Sequence record: MN655998.1
Direction: 5' to 3' (one strand)
From: Escherichia phage E26
Length of the DNA stretch: 64,000 nt
The first letter of the stretch is position 1, and every line of letters starts with the position of its first letter. This document shows positions 49,469-59,415 of the stretch, one piece after another. The translations under genes were made by a program, and so were the position numbers. A model generated the notes under the pieces. The model was not told the origin of the DNA and ran no database searches. It saw only the letters and a program-made list of their open reading frames with translations.

Positions 49469-51520
49469 TTACATTTTAAATTTATCTGGCATTGCGTCTA
49501 CAGATACCAGATCAGCGATAAGCTGACGTAGAGTTGCCTTATCTGCTTTCTTACGTTCGGTTTTAGCTTCGCTAATGAAGCTGGAGAAAGACAGGTCAGA
49601 AGCAGGTTTAACAACACCTTCACGGATGAATGCATCACCGTCCGCGATCATCTCGCCAGATTCTTGTAATGCTGCCAGTTCATTTTTGTTCATAATATGT
49701 GCCTCAATGTAATAAGTTTCTTGTGAATCCGTCGATGCCGTAGCACGAGTTACCGTATCAAAGGATAACACAACACCGCGAGGAAGTAAAATCTCGCATT
49801 CTTTGTAAGCAAATGCTTTGTTACCTACTGGCAAGACAGGGATGTTTTCCGCGCCAGCAATGGAGAAAGCAACATTAGCGCCACCTTCACCGCGAGAGCC
49901 AGCCATAGAATCAACACCAGCAACGGCACTAGCCACGTTTGCATTCCAGCCGCCAAAAATGTTAGGTGCAAGGGAAGTGCTCACATAGTTTTTAAAGTAA
50001 AACGCTTTTTGCTTACGTGCAGTTTCCCACATTTGCGACCGGAAGTCCATACCACGATACAGAATAGTACCCGGATCAAGTTTAACTCCATAGTTGGAGA
50101 AGGCATTATCCAGTGCATCGCACATCTTGACCAATTCTTCTGGATCTGCGATGCCTTCAAACTCTTCCAGCTTACGATCAGTTAGGAAGTTGTTCATATT
50201 GATGTATGCTGCATCGGCATATTCGCTCAATACAAAACCTTCCGCGCCAGGCAGATCAAGATCAATATCTGCCATCATTTCACCCATGTTGCTAGCAATT
50301 GCTTCAAACATACCGGAAGCAACATTACGTAGGGCATCGGTTTTAATCTGTGTGATGTGACTACGCAGCATTTCAGCTTTTACATCTGCTGGCATAGACT
50401 GGTCTACTCGATCCATTGCCAGGGCGGTGATCTTGTTTTCGAATACTTCCTCGCTCATGATTTCTTTTAAGCGTTTGATTGATGCTGCGATAACTTCCGC
50501 AGACAACGGATCATATTGATCCTGAACTTTTACCAGTTCGCTTACTGCGTATTTTGCATCGGCTTCGCTTTCAAAAATAGTACGCATGAAACCATAGCGA
50601 GTGATAATATCACTTGTCCAGTCATTCAGAGAACGGGCGGTTGAACGTTCTAAGGCTTGACGATCAATCAGAGTATTAAACTGTTTCTTAGGTTCGGCTT
50701 CGGTGATATCTTCTTCTGGTTTAAGATTAATTTTTTCTGGATGATTCACGTAGTCGCTGTTATATGTCGCTTGAGTTTTCAGCATTTCTTCTTTAGTCAA
50801 ACGAGATTTAGCCGCTACGCGTTGTTCTGCTTCCGCGTTTCGTTCTTCTTCTGACACAAGACTAGCCGCATATGCCTCATCTTTAGTCAGAGATTCACCA
50901 GTAGCCTTAGATACCCAGCGATCACCTAAATCACTTTCTACTTTAGTGAACAAGGATTCATCAAGTTTAATCCCTTTAATCTTATCAATCGCCATCCCGC
51001 GACGCTTGACAACAACTAAAGCGATCTTTTTGCTGGTCATTACTTCCTGCTGGAATACTTCAAACTTCGGTGTACGACGCACCAAACGCTCTATAACGCG
51101 CTTAACCAGTTCGGTCTTACCTTTCATGCGGGATACGTTAAAACGGAACATAACAGCGTCTAATTGCGCTTTACGGGCTGTTTCCATAACCACATCAAAA
51201 GCACTTGCCATAACTGCAATCGGGTTATCGCCTAGACCATTTTTAAGCTGTACAATACGACCGCTTTTGTTCATTTCGCACAGTACAACATGTGCGGTTT
51301 TGTCACCCATACGAATGATTTTAGGTGTTTTGTTGGTGAAGTTACAAAGACGGACAATCACATCTTTATCGCGTGTCTGTACTGCAAAAAGCTGTTTAGG
51401 ATTCTGCTTAGGCTTTAAGCACTGTACCGGAGCAATACTGCCAAAGTTTTCTTCCTCTTCCGTCAACAGCCATTTCTCGAAAGATTCAATCATTAGATCG
51501 TCGATTTCTAAGTTAAACAT
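49469..51520 (-). CDS. alt: ADP-ribosyltransferase Alt
   Basis: 683 aa; motifs LYRGMDF, YVSTSLAPNIFGG and YKECEILLPRG; size as T4 Alt (682 aa). Confidence 0.85.
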   Translation of the reverse strand: MFNLEIDDLMIESFEKWLLTEEEENFGSIAPVQCLKPKQNPKQLFAVQTRDKDVIVRLCNFTNKTPKIIRMGDKTAHVVLCEMNKSGRIVQLKNGLGDNPIAVMASAFDVVMETARKAQLDAVMFRFNVSRMKGKTELVKRVIERLVRRTPKFEVFQQEVMTSKKIALVVVKRRGMAIDKIKGIKLDESLFTKVESDLGDRWVSKATGESLTKDEAYAASLVSEEERNAEAEQRVAAKSRLTKEEMLKTQATYNSDYVNHPEKINLKPEEDITEAEPKKQFNTLIDRQALERSTARSLNDWTSDIITRYGFMRTIFESEADAKYAVSELVKVQDQYDPLSAEVIAASIKRLKEIMSEEVFENKITALAMDRVDQSMPADVKAEMLRSHITQIKTDALRNVASGMFEAIASNMGEMMADIDLDLPGAEGFVLSEYADAAYINMNNFLTDRKLEEFEGIADPEELVKMCDALDNAFSNYGVKLDPGTILYRGMDFRSQMWETARKQKAFYFKNYVSTSLAPNIFGGWNANVASAVAGVDSMAGSRGEGGANVAFSIAGAENIPVLPVGNKAFAYKECEILLPRGVVLSFDTVTRATASTDSQETYYIEAHIMNKNELAALQESGEMIADGDAFIREGVVKPASDLSFSSFISEAKTERKKADKATLRQLIADLVSVDAMPDKFKM

Positions 51521-51587: not shown

Positions 51588-51800
51588 TTATAATGCACCA
51601 TCGAGCAATTGCTCTAATGTGTATCCTGAATAGTCTTTTTCAATCAGGATATATTTTCCTACTCGTTTAATACAACCGCGCATTTCAACGTATTCTGCGT
51701 AGTTGATGGTGCGAGTTGTTCCATCTTCTAGCAAAGCAGTACCGATTTCGTTAATGCGGTCATAAGTTACGTCGGTAATGATGATTTCGATGTTAGCCAT
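51588..51800 (-). CDS. hypothetical protein (70 aa)
   Basis: ORF with conserved cassette leader and RBS. Confidence 0.55.
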   Translation of the reverse strand: MANIEIIITDVTYDRINEIGTALLEDGTTRTINYAEYVEMRGCIKRVGKYILIEKDYSGYTLEQLLDGAL

Positions 51801-51865
51801 TTGATACTCCTTAGTAGTTCGTTTCGGTATGGGTGTATTATGATATACACCCTCTGTTATGTCAA
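51801..51865 (-). promoter_or_regulatory. PeSL-like early promoter/stem-loop cassette a
   Basis: minus strand TTGACA, 17 nt, CATAAT with GGGTGTAT..ATACACCC inverted repeat, then conserved leader CCGAAACGAACTAGGAGAATCAA-ATG. Confidence 0.6.
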
Positions 51866-51871
51866 CAACTT

Positions 51872-52051
51872 TTAGAACATTTTTGAAATTAATTCTGCTT
51901 TGATTTCGCAGAGAACATCTAAAGATTTCTCGTCACCCGCTTTTGCTGCTTCTGATTGCATTTTTGAAATGGCTTCAACGTAAGTGCAATTATAAGCCGC
52001 TTGAACTTTAGCGATTGCGATGATTGCCGATTCGATGGTTAAGTGTTTCAT
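51872..52051 (-). CDS. hypothetical small protein (58 aa)
   Basis: below ORF-track cutoff; ATG preceded by the cassette leader RBS (GGAGAATCAAAC). Confidence 0.45.
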   Translation of the reverse strand: MKHLTIESAIIAIAKVQAAYNCTYVEAISKMQSEAAKAGDEKSLDVLCEIKAELISKMF

Positions 52052-52112
52052 GTTTGATTCTCCTTTCGTTTCGGTATGTGTGCATTATAGGGGATCACCG
52101 ATCCCCTGTCAA
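52052..52112 (-). promoter_or_regulatory. PeSL-like cassette b
   Basis: TTGACA, palindromic 17-bp spacer GGGGATCGGTGATCCCC (two GATC sites), TATAAT, conserved leader; -35 overlaps the end of the DUF262 gene. Confidence 0.6.
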
Positions 52113-52640
52113 CAACTTTTTTGAATTATTTTTTAATTGCTCATCTTGTAATAGAGCAATAACATGCTGGCGATGTTCTTCCGATTGAGGCACACCGAAA
52201 AAGTTTGTTTTGTAGAAATATTCTAATCGATCTTCTCGTGTGCTCTCTTCCATCATGATCGCGGGTAGTCCGAGATTTCGGAAACGTCGCTTTTCTGCTG
52301 GCGTAAAATCACTGTAATACAACATAGAATCATCATTACCAGCAATGCTAAACTCATCTTTCATAAAGGAGAATATTGCGTTTAAACGCTGTTTACCGTC
52401 CACGATTTCGATCTCATAGCGAGAGCCATCATCAATCTTAGCCATTGCGATAGCACCAACCGGAAAATCATTAATCAGGTTTTCGATAAACATACGTTTG
52501 TTTTCGGTGTCCCATACCAAAGGACGCTGATAATCTGGGTTCATGTTGATATAGCCATCTTCTAACCACGCCTCATAAACAGAGATGACAAAGTTTTTAG
52601 TATTGGTATAGTAACGGCGTTTAGGCGTTAAACGGTTCAT
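52095..52640 (-). CDS. DUF262 / ParB-like nuclease-domain protein (GmrSD N-terminal-domain-like)
   Basis: 181 aa from ATG (MNRL, AGGAGA RBS); motifs DYQRPLVW and DGKQRL; ORF-track start at 52676 is TTG. Confidence 0.6.
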   Translation of the reverse strand: MNRLTPKRRYYTNTKNFVISVYEAWLEDGYINMNPDYQRPLVWDTENKRMFIENLINDFPVGAIAMAKIDDGSRYEIEIVDGKQRLNAIFSFMKDEFSIAGNDDSMLYYSDFTPAEKRRFRNLGLPAIMMEESTREDRLEYFYKTNFFGVPQSEEHRQHVIALLQDEQLKNNSKKLLTGDR

Positions 52641-52641
52641 G

Positions 52642-52971
52642 TTATAGTCTCCTGAATGGATCATCACGTAAATCAATATCTTTTAAGAACTCATCCCATG
52701 AATGGCGGATATTGTTCTTAATTCTCCAGATAAGCGCAGGGATTGAACGCTCTCCCATCTGGAAGTAAGGATCATATGATCCATATGCCCAATATGCTAC
52801 TACAATTCCACAATCAGCGCAATAATATTCTATTTCACTTGCTGGCGACCAAAGTCCATCAATATGATCGGTGATCCTGCTTTCGATGTTATGGCTATGG
52901 CAATCAGGGCAACGGATGCAATGACCTTGTTTATCGTAATTTGACGTTAGCGAATACTTAAACAATCTCAT
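52642..52971 (-). CDS. Zn-ribbon protein
   Basis: 109 aa; CxxC..H and CxxC pairs (CIRCPDCHSH, CADCG); start overlaps upstream stop by 1 nt. Confidence 0.5.
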   Translation of the reverse strand: MRLFKYSLTSNYDKQGHCIRCPDCHSHNIESRITDHIDGLWSPASEIEYYCADCGIVVAYWAYGSYDPYFQMGERSIPALIWRIKNNIRHSWDEFLKDIDLRDDPFRRL

Positions 52972-53687
52972 TATAGATCCTTATTTGCTTCAAATACTGC
53001 CTTTGCGAATCCTCGCGGGGTAAGTGACCTTATAGTCTTTGTTTTCGTTCCTTTCCCGCCTAGCTTAGAATGCTGTTTACTGTACCCTTTATTAATCTGC
53101 AACGGTTTCTTTTCTGGCATTATAAAGCCTTGTCCGGTCCATAAGCAAGTCCTTTTCGGGTACATATCACGGGCGGCAATATACTCAGGAAAAGTAGGAT
53201 GTTTATCATCTTCCGGCAAATAACCGCCATATTCCCACGGATGGAACATATAATCAGGCTTACGCCACATGCTAGAGATAACGCTTACAGGATTCTCTAT
53301 CATGTAGGGAACTCCTAGCCATTCACCCAAATAAGCGGTTATTTTAGCTGCCCGTACATCATGAACTTGAATCAATGGTCCTTGCTCTCGTTTCTTTCGT
53401 TCAAAGTGTGCAGCGCCACTAACAGCTAAATTGGTGCACGGTGGGAATGCAAATATAATATCCGGTTTCCCCCATTCAAGGTCCATTGCTCTTTCTAGCC
53501 AGTTCAAATCAATCCATGTGTTTACATATGTAATGTTTGGATGTTCAAATCGGGTATTATATTTTTTGTATGTACCGTGGTCGCCATCGTCAGCATTAAA
53601 GCAGATCACCTTATGACCTGCTTTAGCCCATTCTAACCCCATTATCCCCGATCCGTCAAAGTTGCAGAATATTAATTTTTGTTTCAC
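52971..53687 (-). CDS. compact DNA (cytosine-5)-methyltransferase-like protein
   Basis: 238 aa; motif I FDGSG, PC motif FPPCTNLAVSG, ENV-like MIENPV; GTG start overlapping upstream TGA with GGGGG as RBS. Confidence 0.5.
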   Translation of the reverse strand: MKQKLIFCNFDGSGIMGLEWAKAGHKVICFNADDGDHGTYKKYNTRFEHPNITYVNTWIDLNWLERAMDLEWGKPDIIFAFPPCTNLAVSGAAHFERKKREQGPLIQVHDVRAAKITAYLGEWLGVPYMIENPVSVISSMWRKPDYMFHPWEYGGYLPEDDKHPTFPEYIAARDMYPKRTCLWTGQGFIMPEKKPLQINKGYSKQHSKLGGKGTKTKTIRSLTPRGFAKAVFEANKDL

Positions 53688-53935
53688 GCTGCCCCCATTG
53701 GTTTGATAGTAACAGAATCTAAAAGACCTTTGTTAGCCAGTTCGCGGCAAGTTTTCAGATCCGCAACTTCCCAGCCAGCCGCAATCAGGTTATCAATCAG
53801 GCTGTTAGCAATTTCTTCGCTCATGAAAGAGCACTGTTTGCCGATGGTGTAGCGTACACGCTGTAATTTCAGTTTACGGAAGCCTTTAACGTTCAGGTCT
53901 TTAGCGATTTTCTTTGCGGTTTCGATGTTAGCCAT
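53684..53935 (-). CDS. hypothetical protein (83 aa), first gene of the operon
   Basis: ORF with cassette leader RBS. Confidence 0.5.
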   Translation of the reverse strand: MANIETAKKIAKDLNVKGFRKLKLQRVRYTIGKQCSFMSEEIANSLIDNLIAAGWEVADLKTCRELANKGLLDSVTIKPMGAA

Positions 53936-54004
53936 TGTTTGATTCTCCTAAGTGGTATCTCGTCTTGATGGTTGTATTGTAGGGGAGTTATCCTCCCCTG
54001 TCAA
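53936..54004 (-). promoter_or_regulatory. PeSL-like cassette c
   Basis: TTGACA, spacer GGGGAGGATAACTCCCC (inverted repeat), TACAAT, leader. Confidence 0.55.
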
Positions 54005-54018
54005 CACTTTTTATAAAA

Positions 54019-54186
54019 TTATTTGTTAATTTCCGGTGCGTTGCTTGGATAGTAACCTTCTTTAACTCCGAGGTATTTCGCAACCATCCCTACAATCTTC
54101 TGTGCTACTACAATGTCAAATTTCAGATAATCTTCACCGTAGGTTTCAATGATATATGCTTCACATGCTGCTTTAGTCTCGAACAT
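54019..54186 (-). CDS. small protein (55 aa), paralog copy 1
   Basis: MFETKAACEAYIIETYGEDYLKFDIVVAQKIVGMVAKYLGVKEGYYPSNAPEINK; near-identical second copy at 57287..57454. Confidence 0.6.
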   Translation of the reverse strand: MFETKAACEAYIIETYGEDYLKFDIVVAQKIVGMVAKYLGVKEGYYPSNAPEINK

Positions 54187-54249
54187 TTTGATTCTCCTAT
54201 TTCGTTTCGGTATGTGTGTATTATAGGGGATCTCCCGATCCCCGTCAAC
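54187..54249 (-). promoter_or_regulatory. PeSL-like cassette d
   Basis: TTGACG-like -35, spacer GGGGATCGGGAGATCCCC, TATAAT, leader. Confidence 0.55.
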
Positions 54250-54263
54250 AACTTTTTTTAAAA

Positions 54264-54545
54264 TTATTCGTGATTAGTTTCGATGTTGTGCATTTTGCAC
54301 CAGTTCAGCCAATCGCCCAGTTCTTGATAGTTGATGCTTTTATCTGCTGCCATCGTTTTTGTCTTGATACCCATATGTGCGTTATGAGTAAGCATTTTTA
54401 CAGTGAACTCGATTTTATCGCCTTTAGCTTTAACATCAACCAGTTTGGTCCACTGGCTACCAGCACCGCGAATGTTCATGCCAACGATGTTTCCGATGTA
54501 TGCTTCTTTGTTTTTCAGGATTTCGGTTGCTTTGATGAATTTCAT
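54264..54545 (-). CDS. hypothetical protein (93 aa)
   Basis: ORF with cassette leader RBS. Confidence 0.5.
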   Translation of the reverse strand: MKFIKATEILKNKEAYIGNIVGMNIRGAGSQWTKLVDVKAKGDKIEFTVKMLTHNAHMGIKTKTMAADKSINYQELGDWLNWCKMHNIETNHE

Positions 54546-54607
54546 TTTTGATTCTCCAGTTCGTTTCGGTATGGGTGTATTATGCTATGTTCTTACTTTG
54601 GTGTCAA
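54546..54607 (-). promoter_or_regulatory. PeSL-like cassette e
   Basis: TTGACA, 17 nt, CATAAT, leader; no spacer palindrome in this copy. Confidence 0.5.
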
Positions 54608-54615
54608 CAACTTTT

Positions 54616-54885
54616 TTAGATATTTTCAGAAATAAATTTTAAAACTTGACGTAAATGTTTCTCATCTTTGATAGTCGCCGGAAGTTCTTCTTTTACTTCC
54701 TGTGCAAGATAGATATTTCCGTTCCAAGTGAAAGATCCGTCTTCGTTTACGCGATAGCTGAACATCCACTCGCAATCATTTTCGATTTCATATACACACA
54801 GAAGAGTGTAATCTTCAAAGCTATTGAGTTCAAGGTCGAAGCCGTGACGTTTTGCAAAGTTGGTAGTGGTTTTAGTCAGTGCCAT
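54616..54885 (-). CDS. hypothetical protein (89 aa)
   Basis: ORF with cassette leader RBS. Confidence 0.5.
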   Translation of the reverse strand: MALTKTTTNFAKRHGFDLELNSFEDYTLLCVYEIENDCEWMFSYRVNEDGSFTWNGNIYLAQEVKEELPATIKDEKHLRQVLKFISENI

Positions 54886-54954
54886 TGTTTGATTCTCCTA
54901 AGTGGTATCTCGTTTCGATGTGTGTATTATGCTATAGGCGTGTTCTGGTGTCAA
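54886..54954 (-). promoter_or_regulatory. PeSL-like cassette f
   Basis: TTGACA, 17 nt, CATAAT, leader. Confidence 0.5.
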
Positions 54955-54978
54955 TTCTTTTTTTAAAATTTTATGCAA

Positions 54979-55004
54979 TAAAAAAGCCGACGCTAAGGTC
55001 GGCT
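54979..55004 (-). terminator. rho-independent terminator after paralog A1
   Basis: minus strand AGCCGAC-CUUAGC-GUCGGCU then UUUUUU. Confidence 0.6.
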
Positions 55005-55011
55005 AATAAAA

Positions 55012-55320
55012 TCATTTAGACAAATAATCATTCTGTGCAATCCGGTCAGCATGTTCCGGCGTTACGTCAATTGCAATCACTTTAACGCGTGCTTTCTTGC
55101 GACCTGGGTTTTCTCGTAGCCAGTGCGTGTGACCGTACAAATTTTTATACTTTGATGCTTCTTCGAAGGTACGGATCGGACCTGGGTAATCAGCGTAAAG
55201 GATCTCTAGATCTTCGGTGATGTAAAAATATACATCGTAATTGCTGTTCTCTAGCTTAAGCAGAGACTTTCGGAACATTGGGAGATTTTCGCGGGTAAAT
55301 TCAAAGATATTATCTTTCAT
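55012..55320 (-). CDS. HxHW-family paralog A1
   Basis: 102 aa from ATG (MKDN, GAGGA RBS); GHTHWL then VKVIAIDV. Confidence 0.55.
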   Translation of the reverse strand: MKDNIFEFTRENLPMFRKSLLKLENSNYDVYFYITEDLEILYADYPGPIRTFEEASKYKNLYGHTHWLRENPGRKKARVKVIAIDVTPEHADRIAQNDYLSK

Positions 55321-55344
55321 AGTATTATCCTCAATAGTTGGATG

Positions 55345-55367
55345 AAAAGGGGGGCTTAACGCCCCCA
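55345..55367 (-). terminator. rho-independent terminator (GGGGGCGUUAAGCCCCC family)
   Basis: same hairpin as at 51562..51582 and, on the other strand, after wac. Confidence 0.6.
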
Positions 55368-55371
55368 TATA

Positions 55372-55659
55372 TTAAAACAGTCCTTCCTGTACACCGTAAT
55401 AGAGTTCGTCGCTGATAATTTCATTAATGCGACGGTGTGCATATTCCTGATTTGCGAAGTTGTCAGCAAGTTCTACTTTAGTTTCTCCGTCATGAGTCCA
55501 TTTAGTGATAACTTTACCATCTGCAAATTTGAAGTTGAACTCTTTAGCTACCGCATCGCGTACCAGACGTGCAAACTTATTGTTGCGGATTGCATTGTCG
55601 GTTTCGTGTGCAGCGTGAGCGAATTTGTTAACTTTCAGAGTGATAGTAATGTATGCCAT
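55372..55659 (-). CDS. small protein, family C paralog 1
   Basis: 95 aa; RLVRDAVAKEFNFK matches REVRKALAKEFNTK in 58672..58983. Confidence 0.5.
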   Translation of the reverse strand: MAYITITLKVNKFAHAAHETDNAIRNNKFARLVRDAVAKEFNFKFADGKVITKWTHDGETKVELADNFANQEYAHRRINEIISDELYYGVQEGLF

Positions 55660-55734
55660 AATTTGATTCTCCTAGTTAGAAAGTGTATCTCGTTTCGATG
55701 GGTGTATTATGCTATACACCCGACCTTATGTCAA
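55660..55734 (-). promoter_or_regulatory. PeSL-like cassette g
   Basis: TTGACA, 17 nt, CATAAT flanked by GGGTGTAT..ATACACCC, leader. Confidence 0.55.
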
Positions 55735-55740
55735 CACTTT

Positions 55741-56019
55741 TTATAAAATAATTTTTTGATATTTTTCTATGATGTTCGTGTAAGTCACATCAACCGCTAG
55801 CACCGTTGCTTCGAATCCACCGTTTAGCCAATGGCTATGGTCATGATCGTGAAAGAAACCAAGACCAGTACGAAGACCTTCTTTATATTCTGCGCGTACA
55901 TTTAGATCATCATCGATAAACAGATAAAACCATGAATTTTTACTAGGATTGATGATACAACCTTTCAGATTAGGGAGAATATCACGACTAAGAATAAACT
56001 TATCACCTACTTTGAACAT
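55741..56019 (-). CDS. HxHW-family paralog A2
   Basis: 92 aa from ATG (MFKVGDKF, GAGGA RBS); HSHWL then VLAVDV. Confidence 0.55.
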   Translation of the reverse strand: MFKVGDKFILSRDILPNLKGCIINPSKNSWFYLFIDDDLNVRAEYKEGLRTGLGFFHDHDHSHWLNGGFEATVLAVDVTYTNIIEKYQKIIL

Positions 56020-56033
56020 AATATTTTCCTCAC

Positions 56034-56342
56034 TTATAAAGTTTGACCGTTGTTTTTCGCGTAATGCTGAATGCGTGCTTGATCTGCTTCCGCTGGTGAT
56101 AGATTCCATGCAACCACTACAACTTCTGACGCATCGTCATCCGTTTTTGATACCCAATGATTATGATTCATACAATTGTTTGCTATCGCGTGAGCAAATG
56201 ATTTCATCACTGGAGATGTATAATCATAGTAACGGATTTTCAGATTTTCATCAACATACAAGTAGATCGTATAAGGTTTATATTCAGTAACCAGTAACAG
56301 ACAGTTACGCAATTCTGGGAAAATCTTTTTAGTTAATTTCAT
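56034..56342 (-). CDS. HxHW-family paralog A3
   Basis: 102 aa from ATG (MKLTKK, GAGGA RBS); HNHWV then VVVVAWNL. Confidence 0.5.
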   Translation of the reverse strand: MKLTKKIFPELRNCLLLVTEYKPYTIYLYVDENLKIRYYDYTSPVMKSFAHAIANNCMNHNHWVSKTDDDASEVVVVAWNLSPAEADQARIQHYAKNNGQTL

Positions 56343-56343
56343 T

Positions 56344-56553
56344 TTATAATCCTCGGTCGCGGCTATAGTACACGGTACGCCATACAATTTCATGTTTCGT
56401 GTCGCTCCAGCACACGATCTCATTTACTCTTAAATCTTTGTTATCAACAAAAGATGAACATTGTGACGTTTCTTTCATCATTTTATCTGCTGTTTTCTCA
56501 TCAAATACAGCACAGATTTCTTTATACACTCGATAATCTTTAAACTTGCTCAT
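56344..56553 (-). CDS. small protein, family B tandem paralog 1
   Basis: 69 aa; MSKFKDYRVYKEICAVFDEKTADKMMKETSQCSSF against MSKFKDYKAYQQILRVYEPEFAEKMMEDASKCPSF in the neighbour. Confidence 0.55.
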   Translation of the reverse strand: MSKFKDYRVYKEICAVFDEKTADKMMKETSQCSSFVDNKDLRVNEIVCWSDTKHEIVWRTVYYSRDRGL

Positions 56554-56555
56554 AA

Positions 56556-56765
56556 TTAACACCAATCAAGAGTTTTTGAAAACACATCTATCCATTGTTG
56601 AGTATATGCGGTTTCTTTCCATGATACAATACCGGTAGAATAATGGTTTTTGTTTCCAGAAAAGGACGGGCATTTTGATGCATCTTCCATCATCTTTTCG
56701 GCGAACTCTGGTTCGTATACTCGCAAGATCTGTTGATATGCTTTGTAGTCTTTAAATTTGCTCAT
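56556..56765 (-). CDS. small protein, family B tandem paralog 2
   Basis: 69 aa; see paralog 1. Confidence 0.55.
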   Translation of the reverse strand: MSKFKDYKAYQQILRVYEPEFAEKMMEDASKCPSFSGNKNHYSTGIVSWKETAYTQQWIDVFSKTLDWC

Positions 56766-57030
56766 AATCGTTAACTACCTTATCAGCTTCTTTTATTGTT
56801 TTTACATCAACTGCGATAACCCGTAAAGGTTCGTCGTGGTTCCACCAATGATCGTGAATATCAGCTTGTGATTTATCACCAAAGGAATCACGAATATCAT
56901 TTTTACATTTATAGCTAATGTGACCGTCATAGTCAACATAAAGGTAATTATCGAAAATCGGCGTTTTTAAGATCATACCGAAAAATCTTTCTTTGTGTGT
57001 CTTATCCAGCGTTGCAGTAATTCGCATCAT
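56752..57030 (-). CDS. HxHW-family paralog A4
   Basis: 92 aa; HDHWW then VIAVDV; GAGGA RBS. Confidence 0.55.
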   Translation of the reverse strand: MMRITATLDKTHKERFFGMILKTPIFDNYLYVDYDGHISYKCKNDIRDSFGDKSQADIHDHWWNHDEPLRVIAVDVKTIKEADKVVNDYEQI

Positions 57031-57042
57031 AATATATTCCTC

Positions 57043-57222
57043 TTAGAAAGGGATGGTCATTTCTTGAGCTTGTACATTCTCGTTAGGATTAAACTTCATC
57101 CAACCGATATTGTCTACCAGCATATGTACATTTTTATCATACCCTACGTGAGTAGTCAACACTAAATGTGCTTTACCTTCAACGATGATTTCCATGTACT
57201 TCTGAACTTCGATAGCTTTCAT
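57043..57222 (-). CDS. hypothetical small protein (59 aa)
   Basis: below ORF-track cutoff; cassette leader RBS. Confidence 0.45.
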   Translation of the reverse strand: MKAIEVQKYMEIIVEGKAHLVLTTHVGYDKNVHMLVDNIGWMKFNPNENVQAQEMTIPF

Positions 57223-57283
57223 TTTGATTCTCCGTTTGTTGTCTTGATGGGAGTATCTTACTACTCCCTTTAATCATTGTCAA
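57223..57283 (-). promoter_or_regulatory. PeSL-like cassette h
   Basis: TTGACA followed by GGGAGTA..TACTCCC inverted repeat around a weak -10, leader. Confidence 0.45.
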
Positions 57284-57286
57284 CTA

Positions 57287-57454
57287 TTATTTGTTAATTT
57301 CCGGTGCGTTGCTTGGATAGTAACCTTCTTTAACACCCAGATATTTTGCAACCATTCCGGTGATCTTCTGTGCTACTACGATATCGAATTTCAGGTAGTC
57401 TTCACCGTGGGTTGCTACAATGTATGCTTCGCATTCTGCTTTAGTCTGGAACAT
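57287..57454 (-). CDS. small protein (55 aa), paralog copy 2
   Basis: MFQTKAECEAYIVATHGEDYLKFDIVVAQKITGMVAKYLGVKEGYYPSNAPEINK; last ~47 nt identical to copy 1. Confidence 0.6.
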   Translation of the reverse strand: MFQTKAECEAYIVATHGEDYLKFDIVVAQKITGMVAKYLGVKEGYYPSNAPEINK

Positions 57455-57518
57455 TTTTGATTCTCCTATATCTCGTTGGTATGTGTGTATTATAGGGGAT
57501 CTCCCGATCCCCTGTCAA
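57455..57518 (-). promoter_or_regulatory. PeSL-like cassette i
   Basis: TTGACA, spacer GGGGATCGGGAGATCCCC, TATAAT, leader. Confidence 0.6.
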
Positions 57519-57526
57519 CAACTTTT

Positions 57527-57835
57527 TTATTCTTCATCTTCATTTTTATCTTTATATGCGTACTTCATAAATTTGTCTGCTACTTTGTCCGCGTTTTCAG
57601 GTTCTACGTCTGACGCTAGGACAACAGCTAGTTCGGTTTTGTCGTTTCCATCATACCAATGATTATGAGTGTCGTTTTCTTTGATATAAAACGAATCATT
57701 TGGAGTTGTGCGACAATATACGTCTAAATTCCCATCGATATAAAAGATCCAATCCGAATACAAAATGATTGTTTTAGCCAGATTTTTATTGTCTCTTACA
57801 AAAGGTTCCGCGACAAATAGCTTAGTTTGTTCCAT
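57527..57835 (-). CDS. HxHW-family paralog A5
   Basis: 102 aa from ATG (MEQTK, GAGGA RBS); HNHWY then VVLASDV. Confidence 0.5.
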   Translation of the reverse strand: MEQTKLFVAEPFVRDNKNLAKTIILYSDWIFYIDGNLDVYCRTTPNDSFYIKENDTHNHWYDGNDKTELAVVLASDVEPENADKVADKFMKYAYKDKNEDEE

Positions 57836-57851
57836 AGTAATTTCCTCAAAA

Positions 57852-58043
57852 TTATACAGCTTCGTAAACTTCCCAATGTCCAACACCAGCACGCTTAACG
57901 AAAAGGTTTTCTTTGATGTTATTCATAAACGTCTGGATGGATTTAATGCGGTTGGAAGGTTTCCAGTCTTCGTTAGCATTGCGGCGATACATTATAACAT
58001 TACCAGATCGCTTATATTCAGCAACCATTTTAAGACCACACAT
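57852..58043 (-). CDS. hypothetical protein (63 aa)
   Basis: ORF with GAGGA RBS. Confidence 0.45.
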   Translation of the reverse strand: MCGLKMVAEYKRSGNVIMYRRNANEDWKPSNRIKSIQTFMNNIKENLFVKRAGVGHWEVYEAV

Positions 58044-58099
58044 AATAATATCCTCAATTTGTGGGAGAGTATTACCCTCCCAATTATTGTTATACTACA

Positions 58100-58402
58100 T
58101 TACGCAAAATGGCGTGTCAATGCTTCTTTTGCTGTTCCGCTAAGATTCTCGATCTCTCCTGGCATAACATCAACCGCCAGAACTTCTACAACATCCTCTG
58201 ATCCTAACCAGTGAGTATGACCTTTGTAGAACTTGATATCCCATTTAACGCTATCGCTAGCCCACCACACATCACCGTCGATAAAGTTGATGTAAAGCAC
58301 ACTACGACACATTGAATTAATTACTTTCAATACTGCGCCTTTCATCTCTTCCACGGTATGGTCTTCCATTTTGAAGACCTCACCTACCTGAACTTTTGCC
58401 AT
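58100..58402 (-). CDS. HxHW-family paralog A6
   Basis: 100 aa; GHTHWL then VLAVDV; GAGAGGTGA RBS. Confidence 0.55.
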   Translation of the reverse strand: MAKVQVGEVFKMEDHTVEEMKGAVLKVINSMCRSVLYINFIDGDVWWASDSVKWDIKFYKGHTHWLGSEDVVEVLAVDVMPGEIENLSGTAKEALTRHFA

Positions 58403-58419
58403 TTAGTCACCTCTCTTTA

Positions 58420-58599
58420 TTACATAACAATCACGCCAGCCGTTGAAAGTTGATGTTTCAACTGAGCATTTTCTGCTACCGTCAAATCAATGATTTCTTG
58501 TGACGCTGCAATCATATAGCCATTGGTGATATTGTTTTGCATCAGTTCAATGGTTTCTTCGTTGTAGCGGATTTTAGCGATGATTTCGTTGAAGTTCAT
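58420..58599 (-). CDS. hypothetical small protein (59 aa)
   Basis: below ORF-track cutoff; cassette leader RBS. Confidence 0.45.
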   Translation of the reverse strand: MNFNEIIAKIRYNEETIELMQNNITNGYMIAASQEIIDLTVAENAQLKHQLSTAGVIVM

Positions 58600-58663
58600 A
58601 ATTGATTCTCCTAGTTCGTTTCGGTATGTGTGTATTATAGGGGAGTTTAGCCTCCCCTGTCAA
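58600..58663 (-). promoter_or_regulatory. PeSL-like cassette j
   Basis: TTGACA, spacer GGGGAGGCTAAACTCCCC, TATAAT, leader. Confidence 0.6.
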
Positions 58664-58671
58664 CAACTTTT

Positions 58672-58983
58672 TTAAAGTTTTTCCATGATAACGGTCATAA
58701 TTACATCTTCTGCGCGAGCGGTCAGATTATCAGCGTCAGCATGTGGGCGGTTGGTTGTTACAGAGATAACACCGTTGCGCACTGGTTTGATATTGATATC
58801 AAGATGATCCGCGAAACGTTCGCCAGTTACAGAATGAATTTTGGTGTTAAATTCTTTTGCCAGTGCCTTGCGAACTTCACGAATCAGGATAGCGTTTTTC
58901 AGTTGGTTCTCCGCGCTCATGGTCTTCTGGGTGTTCATGGTTCCGTCGAAGTCAATCATTGGCAGCGTTACGATGTATTTCAT
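58672..58983 (-). CDS. small protein, family C paralog 2
   Basis: 103 aa; shares the VRxAxAKEFN motif with 55372..55659. Confidence 0.5.
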   Translation of the reverse strand: MKYIVTLPMIDFDGTMNTQKTMSAENQLKNAILIREVRKALAKEFNTKIHSVTGERFADHLDINIKPVRNGVISVTTNRPHADADNLTARAEDVIMTVIMEKL

Positions 58984-59057
58984 TTTTGATTCTCCGTTTA
59001 AGAAAGTGTGTTTCGTTTTGATGTGTGTAGTATAGGGGATCGGTGATCCCCTGTCAA
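58984..59057 (-). promoter_or_regulatory. PeSL-like cassette k
   Basis: TTGACA, palindromic spacer GGGGATCACCGATCCCC, TATACT, leader. Confidence 0.55.
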
Positions 59058-59070
59058 CAACTTTTTTGAA

Positions 59071-59415
59071 TTATTTTTTCATGAGCTTAATTGCTTCTTC
59101 CATAGCCAACACATTTCGATAGTTAGGGTATCGTGTTAGATCGTCATACATTCGCTTAAGGGTGGAAACTTCCTCAAACTCTGGGTTTTCTAGATACAGT
59201 TGAACAAATTGTTTCTCTATCATCTCTGCTTTTAGCTTGTCTGCTTGTTCCTGTTCATATGATTTAGTTGGACCCAACACCAACAAAATGATAAAGGTGA
59301 TCAACGGGCTAATGATCAACGATAGGATAACATAACCGATAACGCTACGGTTTAAACGGCTTGCATACATGCCTACCAGGAAAACAAAAAGGATATAGAT
59401 AAACAGAAAGAACAT
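59071..59415 (-). CDS. small membrane protein
   Basis: 114 aa; two N-terminal hydrophobic helices then charged tail. Confidence 0.5.
   Translation of the reverse strand: MFFLFIYILFVFLVGMYASRLNRSVIGYVILSLIISPLITFIILLVLGPTKSYEQEQADKLKAEMIEKQFVQLYLENPEFEEVSTLKRMYDDLTRYPNYRNVLAMEEAIKLMKK

Follow-up and report, generated by a model that had tools for sequence, protein, structure and literature searches.

Translationally coupled genes for a compact C5-methyltransferase-like protein and a nuclease-less DUF262 protein in the RB49-like Escherichia phage E26

A preliminary description of DNA of Escherichia phage E26 (record MN655998.1; the window analyzed here is the whole stretch of 64,000 nt) drew attention to four tightly coupled genes, in which a compact C5-methyltransferase-like protein is encoded beside a zinc-ribbon protein and a DUF262 protein. 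The group was read as a phage-borne modification or anti-restriction/exclusion module, which raises the question of whether these genes do act together or merely share a promoter. We favor the latter, with a probability of roughly 0.5: the genes would be independent, co-transcribed accessory genes, of which one encodes an orphan C5-transferase devoid of a target-recognition domain (TRD; the 238-aa protein) and another a nuclease-less switch or decoy (the 181-aa protein).

Organization of the locus and its promoters

Sequence comparison placed the window within the Krischvirus (RB49-like) group, with approximately 98% identity to RB49-type phages. Four translationally coupled ORFs (83, 238, 109 and 181 aa) are located on the minus strand between two PeSL cassettes (Table 1). 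Direct reading of the sequence confirmed both the coordinates and the junctions given in the preliminary description: (i) the stop codon of the 83-aa ORF and the start codon of the 238-aa ORF overlap in GTGA, (ii) the stop codon of the 238-aa ORF and the start codon of the 109-aa ORF overlap in TAATG, and (iii) a 1-nt gap separates the 109-aa ORF from the 181-aa ORF, whose ATG codon is preceded by an AGGAG Shine-Dalgarno sequence.

Table 1. Features of the four-gene unit and the flanking cassettes (positions in the 64,000-nt window)
Feature	Position	Strand	Description
PeSL early promoter cassette	53976..54013	-	TTGACA (-35), stem-loop GGGGAGGATAACTCCCC, TACAAT (-10)
83-aa ORF	53935..53684	-	RB49p190 orthologue, PHROG 14908
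238-aa ORF	53687..52971	-	GTG start; RB49p189 orthologue, PHROG 757
109-aa ORF	52971..52642	-	RB49p188 orthologue, PHROG 2993
181-aa ORF	52640..52095	-	RB49p187 orthologue
Next PeSL cassette	52084..52121	-	TTGACA-17-TATAAT, stem-loop GGGGATCGGTGATCCCC

Each of the ORFs has conserved homologues (PHROG E values from 6.6e-34 to 7e-90), and they are therefore real genes and not chance ORFs; they also form part of the annotation of RB49, GEC-3S and TB34. Judged by its 98-99% identity to the genes deposited with RB49, the locus is already known, and several database records carry the labels "DNA methyltransferase" and "DUF262" for these genes. A fifth gene (RB49p189.1, 81 aa), present between the 83-aa and 238-aa genes in RB49, GEC-3S, TB34 and SAP, is lacking in the E26 window.

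The promoter scan agreed with the earlier proposal that a single cassette promoter serves all four genes. A sigma-70-type promoter (TTGACA-17-TACAAT, 54004..53976), scoring 11/12, was found upstream of the 83-aa gene, with a stem-loop (GGGGAG...CTCCCC) inside it. The second promoter (52112..52084), which scores 12/12, overlies the 3' end of the DUF262 gene, and the stop codon of this gene falls within the second cassette. The first cassette drives the four-gene unit, while the second one ends it and drives the downstream 59-aa gene; both positions are annotated as promoters in GEC-3S. The cassette core (TGTCAACAAYTTTTT) occurs in 12 copies in the window, compared with 0.9 expected.

PeSL cassettes have been described for the phages RB49 and phi1 (PMC2839356, PMC4122927). 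Those of E26 are the same element: their architecture is identical (-35 hexamer, GC-rich hairpin, -10 hexamer, conserved leader and RBS), they are found in the same genomic region as RB49 ORFan192, and the window departs from RB49 solely in the insertion or deletion of entire ORFs between cassettes. The four genes would be transcribed early as a single unit bounded by PeSL cassettes, within a hyperplastic region of the RB49-type genome.

The 238-aa C5-methyltransferase-like protein

All of the short motifs originally singled out were found in the ORFs: FDGSG, FPPCTNLAVSG and MIENPV in the 238-aa protein, and DYQRPLVW and DGKQRL in the 181-aa protein. The first three represent motifs I, IV and VI of the C5-methyltransferases. 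A set of 50 homologues (56-64% identity) showed no variation in these motifs, which contain the catalytic Cys and Glu. Motif I (residues 10-14; F10, G12, S13 and G14 invariant) was aligned by hhalign to F18-A-G-L-G-G of M.HhaI. Motif IV (residues 81-91; P82-P83-C84-T85 invariant) aligns with GFPCQ of M.HhaI and with SPPCS of CmoX, a phage DNA cytosine C5-carboxymethyltransferase (PDB 8YF3; PMC12783734), whose sequence was taken for this comparison from phage S-B43. In motif VI (residues 129-134), E131-N132-P133-V134 comes after a strand (128-131) and parallels FMENV of M.HhaI. Motif IX (R220-S-L-T-P-R225) is part of a segment, RSLTPRGFAK, which corresponds to RKLHPRECAR of M.HhaI position for position. 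The order of motifs I (FxGxG), IV (PC), VI (EN[VP]) and IX (RxL[TH]PR) is that of the catalytic domains of M.HhaI and DNMT3A/B, and the protein has the catalytic-domain fold of the C5-cytosine DNA methyltransferases.

The C5-methyltransferase assignment of this protein failed the sequence thresholds. Pfam PF00145 scored 14.3 bits, short of its cut-off of 22 (E = 0.028), with a match to residues 10-100 only, and hhalign against an M.HhaI family profile gave a probability of only 7%. Searches of the PDB sequences (phmmer, and hmmsearch with a profile) and of NCBIfam returned no match.

The earlier statement that the protein has no obvious TRD was borne out. In the strand that probably corresponds to motif VIII (Y-P-K178-[KR]-T180-C-L-W), K178 and T180 are invariant and QxRxR is absent; from T180 of this strand to R220 of motif IX there are only about 40 residues, compared with approximately 107 in M.HhaI (R165 to R272). 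No motif X of the GN type was found after motif IX, and since the chain stops 13 residues past motif IX, this motif is missing. It holds the residue which faces the transferred group (N304 in M.HhaI, R350 in CmoX; PMC12783734). The absence of motif X had been overlooked in the preliminary description. Compared with the 327 aa of M.HhaI, the E26 protein is about 90 residues shorter, without TRD and motif X, a lack that could point to another cofactor or substrate, or to the need for a partner.

The family retains the catalytic core of the C5-cytosine DNA methyltransferases, with the loop that binds SAM, the PC motif and its catalytic Cys, the Glu of ENV, and motif IX, and has lost the TRD and motif X. 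The 238-aa protein would be an orphan C5-cytosine transferase that depends on SAM and modifies DNA at targets which are sparse or unusual, most plausibly as a means of blunting host restriction.

HpaII and NheI, both of them sensitive to 5mC, cut virion DNA of RB49 (PMC4041780, Fig. S1), and HPLC/MS revealed no modified nucleoside in the DNA of TB34 (PMC13390438), a phage that carries an intact gene for the 238-aa homologue, with all catalytic residues kept. These findings make dense or dinucleotide-level methylation of the packaged DNA unlikely; 5mC at a few specific sites would have gone unnoticed in bulk assays of virion DNA. Neither dCMP hydroxymethylase nor glucosyltransferases are encoded by RB49-type phages, and the DNA of RB49 and TB34 contains ordinary cytosine (PMC4041780; PMC13390438). 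The phage is not hmC-type, which makes moot the earlier concern that a C5-methyltransferase fold would be unexpected in an hmC-type phage.

These properties can also be explained if the 238-aa protein is no conventional DNA m5C methylase and acts on RNA or tRNA, on ssDNA or, transiently, on host DNA, or transfers a group other than methyl. DNMT2 (RNA/tRNA) and CmoX (carboxy-SAM) are precedents, and the lack of detected cytosine modification in the virion DNA of the carriers (PMC4041780; PMC13390438), the missing TRD, the loss of motif X with its group-facing residue (PMC12783734) and the PPC doublet, similar to 'SPPC' of CmoX, are all consistent with this explanation. We nevertheless consider it fairly unlikely. 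DNMT3B and other DNA enzymes outscore DNMT2, and the methylase-like genes of phage D6 and of Arthrobacter phage Amelia show translational coupling with a bona fide DNA methyltransferase of the amino type, which is a DNA-modification context. Moreover, sparse site-specific 5mC would have escaped the bulk assays as well.

CmoX uses carboxy-SAM, which is made by E. coli. It shares with the E26 locus the PPC double-proline catalytic motif, a phage origin and a nearby gene of the ParB superfamily. In contrast to the 238-aa protein, CmoX (372 aa) has a full TRD and a motif X with R350 (GRMVPP), its doublet is found in SPPC and not in FPPC, and it is encoded beside cmoA and a ligase gene, neither of which occurs in the E26 unit. 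R225 was considered as the counterpart of R350, i.e. as a carboxy-SAM signature; this candidate was rejected, because R225 aligns to motif IX and motif X is absent.

The DUF262, zinc-ribbon and 83-aa proteins

GmrSD enzymes are modification-dependent nucleases composed of DUF262 and DUF1524, and GmrS is the split subunit. The last protein of the unit had been assigned to DUF262, and Pfam GmrSD_N supports this assignment well above the gathering score (PF03235; E = 2.8e-20, 73.7 bits versus a cut-off of 33.2). The protein contains the motifs YQRxxVW, DGKQRL and NFxGVPQSEEH, with D81-G-K-Q-R85 invariant in homologues, and has a ParB-N/BrxU/SspE-like fold of the ParB/Srx superfamily. Its closest relatives are 126-344 aa long. 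The domain is shortened, as approximately 130 residues cover the 199-position Pfam profile in relatives. Pfam and other profile searches detected no second domain in the 181-aa protein and no DUF1524 or HNH nuclease in any of the four proteins, and the unit contains no GmrD-like gene. The 181-aa protein is a complete but minimal DUF262/ParB-like domain without a nuclease domain.

With GmrSD, BrxU and SspE it has in common the N-terminal DUF262 NTPase-type domain with the motifs (Y)QR..VW and DG[KQ]QR, and it resembles BrxU and SspE in structure. In contrast to these systems, it lacks the DUF1524/His-Me nuclease domain and is encoded in a lytic phage genome instead of a defence island. It also differs from the ParB-N proteins (pNOB8 ParB-N, PadC and KorB), since it has neither an HTH nor a centromere-binding domain and its sequence family is DUF262, not ParBc (PF02195). 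We infer that this minimal nucleotide-binding domain of the DUF262/ParB-N type, which lacks the DUF1524 nuclease seen in GmrSD enzymes, serves as an NTP-dependent DNA-binding switch or decoy, and not as a restriction nuclease.

The DUF262 gene might even be the key gene of the unit, encoding a dominant-negative decoy or inhibitor of host enzymes of the GmrSD, BrxU or SspE type, or else a sensor for the exclusion of competing T-even phages whose cytosine is modified. Such a role would fit the clear DUF262 domain with its DGKQR motif, the similarity of its structure to BrxU and SspE, its early expression, and the PADLOC matches to the defence proteins NsnA and PD-T4-2_A, as well as the occurrence of orthologues in several T4-like genera (the RB43, RB16 and KP15 groups) and the unmodified DNA of RB49-type phages (PMC4041780). 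It is made improbable by the lack of a nuclease domain in the 181-aa protein, whose companions in the unit gave no nuclease match either, and by the observation that TB34, with its unmodified DNA, is not a target of BrxU (PMC13390438), so that a decoy is not obviously needed.

In the case of the 109-aa protein (PHROG 2993, E = 6.6e-34), Pfam zinc-ribbon models gave matches only below their cut-offs, among them Zn_Ribbon_TF (E = 8.5e-4). The original zinc-ribbon assignment is sustained by two CxxC pairs (C21, C24, C51 and C54), all four cysteines being invariant in the homologues of phages 9g and wV8; a WAYGxYxP motif is also conserved. Members of the family occur in Felixounavirus and Nonagvirus-type phages. 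The homologues of 9g and wV8, the two loci that were inspected, adjoin a primase gene and frd/td, respectively, and lie away from any methyltransferase. The protein would be a small zinc-ribbon protein whose relatives in these two phages lie near replication/nucleotide-metabolism genes. The possibility that it is a hidden HNH/GmrD-like nuclease was set aside, as profile searches gave it no support. Among the examined loci, those of Krischvirus alone contain the 83-aa protein (PHROG 14908, E = 1.3e-58); its resemblances to PPR-like proteins (one PPR-type hairpin) and to RT_UG35 (one segment) were both too weak to be retained.

One module or separate genes

PHROG 757-type genes are present in 1,515-1,579 phage records and in roughly 3% of sequenced phage genomes, and always encode a protein of about 230 aa, kept at 45-65% identity across unrelated phage groups. 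The methylase-like and DUF262 families are both common in phages. Literature searches for a biochemical or structural study of the 238-aa family gave nothing specific.

By analogy with split C5-methyltransferases and ParB-domain/methyltransferase fusions, the three proteins could be parts of one machine, in which the zinc-ribbon and/or the ParB-like DUF262 NTPase would target or load the TRD-less methylase core. The reading frames overlap or abut, the four genes are strictly co-inherited in all of approximately 56 Krischvirus genomes, and the enzyme lacks TRD and motif X. Furthermore, ParB-domain proteins have been reported to be frequent neighbors or fusion partners of phage DNA methyltransferases, including CmoX (PMC12783734), and in two Vequintavirinae phages (Mydovirus and Henunavirus) a compact methyltransferase is encoded about 1 kb upstream of a DUF262 orthologue. 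The latter was rejected as a second case of the pairing, since it is an unrelated NPPY-type amino-methyltransferase.

The distribution of the families makes such a machine decidedly unlikely. None of the 79 non-Krischvirus methylase-like loci has a DUF262, zinc-ribbon or 83-aa homologue within 4 kb. The DUF262 orthologues of RB43, KP15 and ST64B have other neighbors, with neither partner nearby and no methyltransferase within 2.5 kb, and the zinc-ribbon family occurs away from methyltransferases in Nonagvirus and Felixounavirus phages. No fusions were found among the best 120 members of PHROG 757, all of which are 219-259 aa long, and unrelated ORFs are shuffled by design in PeSL regions (PMC2839356). 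Krischvirus is the only group in which the three families are linked, and because the methylase-like and DUF262 genes are not found together elsewhere, they do not resemble a dedicated module. The functional modification/anti-restriction module originally proposed, for which adjacency was the sole basis, is therefore not supported. Since the partners are absent from 79/79 other loci, the methylase-like family must work alone. The same loci, together with the occurrence of the zinc-ribbon family away from methyltransferase genes, also led us to reject the zinc-ribbon as a TRD acting in trans in a split methyltransferase.

We therefore prefer four accessory genes that would be co-transcribed and translationally coupled, yet functionally independent, with tight coupling and the co-inheritance in Krischvirus leaving a residual case for functional coupling. 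There is a small likelihood that PHROG 757 proteins are no conventional sequence-specific DNA m5C methylases and have a substrate or chemistry which bulk assays miss, in Krischvirus possibly with the aid of the zinc-ribbon and DUF262 proteins. The substrate may be RNA, host DNA, DNA during replication, or sites that are rare or defined by structure; the transferred group may be one other than methyl, accommodated in the pocket which the absence of motif X leaves open.

The noteworthy part of the locus is the enzyme family itself, a minimal C5-methyltransferase core without a recognition domain or motif X, carried by two phages whose packaged DNA has no detectable cytosine modification. Definition of its substrate would provide either a DNA methylase that is very small and has an unusual specificity, of interest as a tool and for phage host range, or a new use of the C5-methyltransferase fold.

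The locus also bears on a 2026 report of T6-type cytosine modifications in the Krischvirus SAP, which were not observed in its near-identical sibling TB34. Within the locus, two poly-T indels and a duplicated PeSL segment of 79 bp are all that distinguishes SAP from TB34. The compared coding sequences, and hence the proteins, are identical, and the locus was therefore rejected as the source of the modified DNA of SAP. The modification profile of SAP equals that of the Tequatrovirus phages analyzed alongside, which leads us to suspect cross-contamination of the SAP sample.

Gene layout and promoter cassettes

The region between 51.5 and 54.3 kb of the window is 97–98% identical over its full length to approx. 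56 Krischvirus genomes (RB49, phi1, GEC-3S, TB34 and others). The 83-, 238-, 109- and 181-aa genes correspond to RB49p190, p189, p188 and p187, respectively; p189 is labeled "DNA methyltransferase" in RefSeq and "putative C-5 cytosine DNA methylase" or "Dcm" elsewhere, and p187 is named "DUF262 domain protein" in one record. The four-gene locus is already in public records, and the new aspect is the enzyme family of the 238-aa protein.

The four ORFs of a preliminary description were confirmed at their coordinates by ORF calling, on the minus strand, and the sequence bore out their junctions (GTGA, TAATG, then a 1-nt gap with AGGAG ahead of it). In RB49, GEC-3S, TB34 and SAP an 81-aa ORF, RB49p189.1 (5182-5427 of L001; L-numbers denote comparison loci with their own coordinates), lies between the 83- and 238-aa genes. 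Because this ORF is deleted from the window, the 238-aa gene starts here with GTG, overlapping the upstream stop codon, and not with ATG as in RB49 and TB34. ORFan192, the mini-circle gene of RB49 (PMC2839356), is also missing from the window.

A promoter scan and reading of the sequence revealed that two promoter-stem-loop (PeSL) cassettes bracket the unit; the GEC-3S record annotates promoters at both positions. The PeSL core TGTCAACAAYTTTTT (≤2 mismatches) occurs in 12 copies in the window (0.9 expected), 10 of which form a cluster that marks a hyperplastic region of single-gene or few-gene cassettes. Published work on RB49 and phi1 describes PeSL elements as mobile promoter cassettes by which ORFs are shuffled within hyperplastic regions (PMC2839356, PMC4122927), and the lack of two RB49 ORFs in the window is consistent with such shuffling. 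The DUF262 gene runs into the next PeSL, whose −35 box and hairpin contain its final codons and stop; cassette exchange therefore alters the C-terminus of the DUF262 protein (181 aa in the window vs 172 aa annotated in RB49). Two single-gene cassettes (59- and 70-aa ORFs) separate the unit from the gene of a 683-aa Alt-like RNA polymerase ADP-ribosyltransferase, placed three genes downstream of the unit, as in RB49.

Features of the four-gene unit and its surroundings in the window
Feature	Position	Strand	Remark
Upstream PeSL	54004..53976	-	TTGACA-GGGGAGGATAACTCCCC-TACAAT; promoter scan, sequence read
83-aa ORF	53935..53684	-	RB49p190
Junction of 83-aa and 238-aa genes	53684-53690	-	81-aa RB49p189.1 missing here
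238-aa ORF	53687..52971	-	RB49p189
109-aa ORF	52971..52642	-	RB49p188
181-aa ORF	52640..52095	-	RB49p187
Downstream PeSL	52112..52084	-	TTGACA-GGGGATCGGTGATCCCC-TATAAT; promoter scan, sequence read
DUF262 3′ end/PeSL overlap	52084-52121		−35 box and hairpin
Alt-like gene	49469-51520	-	683 aa
Cluster of PeSL cores	51800-59100		51.8-59.1 kb

A compact C5-methyltransferase-like family

The 238-aa protein matched PHROG 757 "DNA methyltransferase" (E = 7e-90). Its naming as a C5-methyltransferase (C5-MTase) holds for the catalytic-core motifs, which are present, but not for formal membership of PF00145, where the match is marginal (14.3 bits vs a cut-off of 22; residues 10-100 only). There was no NCBIfam match, and PDB sequence searches with the single sequence or a 50-sequence profile found nothing relevant. 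In profile–profile alignments with M.HhaI, the M.HhaI family alignment and the phage C5-carboxymethyltransferase CmoX, only motifs I-IV aligned, with 2-7% probability. An AlphaFold model built from the homologue alignment was confident (pLDDT 90.2, pTM 0.89); a Foldseek search of the PDB gave no more than generic hits to class-I MTase/Rossmann folds (TM approx. 0.35).

Comparison with M.HhaI (reference sequence perfectly matching 10mh_A) clarified the architecture. Motif IX, R220-S-L-T-P-R225-G-F-A-K, aligns position by position with R272-K-L-H-P-R-E-C-A-R of M.HhaI, and since the chain stops 13 residues later, a GN-type motif X is absent. Between the motif-VIII strand and motif IX there are only approx. 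40 residues, where M.HhaI has its target-recognition domain (TRD) of approx. 107 residues, which agrees with the earlier remark that no TRD is obvious. Because of this motif comparison, we assign the protein as a predicted catalytic core of the C5-MTase type, in which nucleophile, glutamate and SAM loop are intact and TRD and motif X are missing; it is treated as probably working like a C5-MTase and is not filed under PF00145.

It would be an orphan C5-cytosine transferase whose specificity may lie in a strongly conserved basic loop, KLGGKxxKTKxIRSLTPRG, and a conserved insert (141-178), and not in a TRD. PK[KR]T appears to replace the QxRxR of motif VIII, and 44 positions are invariant among 50 homologues, including F10/G12/S13/G14, P82-P83-C84-T85 and E131-N132-P133. 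A methylase-like protein with a non-canonical substrate or chemistry seems unlikely.

The lasting interest lies in this very widespread C5-MTase-like family without TRD and motif X. At 90% identity its members fall into more than 7,000 clusters; among the best 120, lengths are uniformly 219-259 aa and identities 55-65%. By tblastn it was found in 1,515 of 50,697 phage records (1,579 with a more distant member as query), from phages of hosts including Escherichia, Klebsiella, Salmonella, Shigella, Vibrio and Arthrobacter, and in Krischvirus, Dhillonvirus-type, T1-like, rV5-like, phAPEC8-like and N15-like groups. In P1-like phage D6 (L091 2276-3854) and Arthrobacter phage Amelia (L095 98-2148) the compact gene overlaps, and is translationally coupled to, a genuine amino-type DNA methylase gene (D12 Dam and PF01555, respectively). 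Finding two methylase genes in tandem in phages as distant as these supports a DNA-modification context for the family.

The family's neighbors were analyzed in 80 IMG/VR loci (4 kb either side), 79 of them non-Krischvirus. None of the 79 contained a zinc-ribbon, DUF262 or 83-aa homologue by tblastn, nor was any positive with a DUF262-relative HMM or zinc-ribbon phmmer; the neighbors were varied small ORFs, an SNF2-type helicase or a primase. The features of the preliminary description are real; its modification or anti-restriction "module" is not upheld, the arrangement being Krischvirus-specific and located in a shuffling-prone region. A true three-protein machine, encoded by these closely joined genes, is the least probable reading. 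Most likely (probability approx. 0.5), the unit consists of independent accessory genes on one shared early PeSL promoter.

DNA modification in carrier phages

RB49 has neither dCMP hydroxymethylase nor glucosyltransferase, and hmC and glucosyl-hmC were judged to be absent from its DNA (PMC4041780), so the earlier concern that a C5-MTase fold would be unexpected in an hmC-type phage does not apply. RB49 DNA was cut by HpaII and NheI, two enzymes that 5mC blocks (PMC4041780, text and Fig. S1), and HPLC/MS found no modified nucleoside in TB34 DNA (PMC13390438); the TB34 238-aa protein is intact, differing from the window's copy at five non-catalytic positions. It is therefore unlikely that packaged DNA is densely methylated, CpG or GpC type included; methylation confined to sparse specific sites would probably be missed by both assays.

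For SAP, which shares 99.96% identity with TB34, the same study reports hmC, glucosyl and gentiobiosyl modifications of the T6 type, for which no pathway is known (PMC13390438, 2026). At this locus, SAP differs from TB34 only by a 79-bp tandem PeSL duplication between the DUF262 and 59-aa genes (L003 1554-1713 vs L004 1554-1634) and by one additional T in each of two other PeSL poly-T tracts. The compared coding sequences are identical, including that of the 238-aa protein, and the locus thus gives no explanation for the SAP modification.

The DUF262, zinc-ribbon and 83-aa proteins

The DUF262 naming of the 181-aa protein was upheld by Pfam GmrSD_N (E = 2.8e-20, over threshold); PADLOC matched the DUF262 portions of NsnA (1.4e-20) and PD-T4-2_A (5e-12). 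Its relatives share the invariant blocks YQRxxVW, DGKQRL and NxxGVPQSEEH, and approx. 130 of their residues cover nearly all of the 199-position Pfam profile, which indicates a complete but shortened domain rather than a fragment. Pfam, NCBIfam and PADLOC detected no nuclease domain in this or the other three proteins. The protein would be a DNA-binding, nucleotide-dependent switch or decoy.

An exhaustive HMMER search retrieved 442 representatives (E ≤ 1e-10); the closest are 126-344 aa long and either stand alone or are extended at the N-terminus by approx. 120 unassigned residues. Such an extension is fused to the compact module in many metagenomic relatives (P0265-P0396). Orthologues with 35-39% identity occur in RB43/RB16, KP15-type Klebsiella phages, prophage ST64B and Vequintavirinae; in RB43, KP15 and ST64B none has a methylase or zinc-ribbon neighbor. 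A DUF262-centered role in anti-defense or exclusion is, in our estimate, unlikely. In RB43 (L086 2140-2478) and KP15 (L087 2157-2480), the DUF262 gene is preceded by an overlapping ORF (approx. 110 aa) whose product has a hydrophobic helix at its C-terminus.

In Mydovirus VLCpiM5b (L089 2306-4513) and Henunavirus pEp_SNUABM_01 (L090 2396-4516), a "DNA methyltransferase" lies approx. 1 kb upstream of DUF262 on the same strand. It was rejected as a second case of the 238-aa/DUF262 pairing, being an unrelated compact (approx. 227 aa) NPPY-type enzyme with no significant Pfam match. An MTase/ParB-like association has been noted for CmoX (PMC12783734), and the NPPY methylases weakly hint that it recurs; they are no evidence for a specific pairing of the 238-aa and DUF262 proteins.

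The 109-aa protein (PHROG 2993) has invariant cysteines C21, C24, C51 and C54, as its designation as a Zn-ribbon protein had implied, followed by WAYGxYxP; homologues adjoin primase (phage 9g) and frd/td (Felix-O1-like wV8). The 83-aa protein (PHROG 14908) was confined to Krischvirus among the loci examined. Its residues 43-76 resemble a single pentatricopeptide-type helical hairpin (summed E of 2e-9 against designer PPR proteins, each individual repeat being insignificant), and it matched positions 722-785 of the PADLOC RT_UG35 model (E = 1.9e-5).
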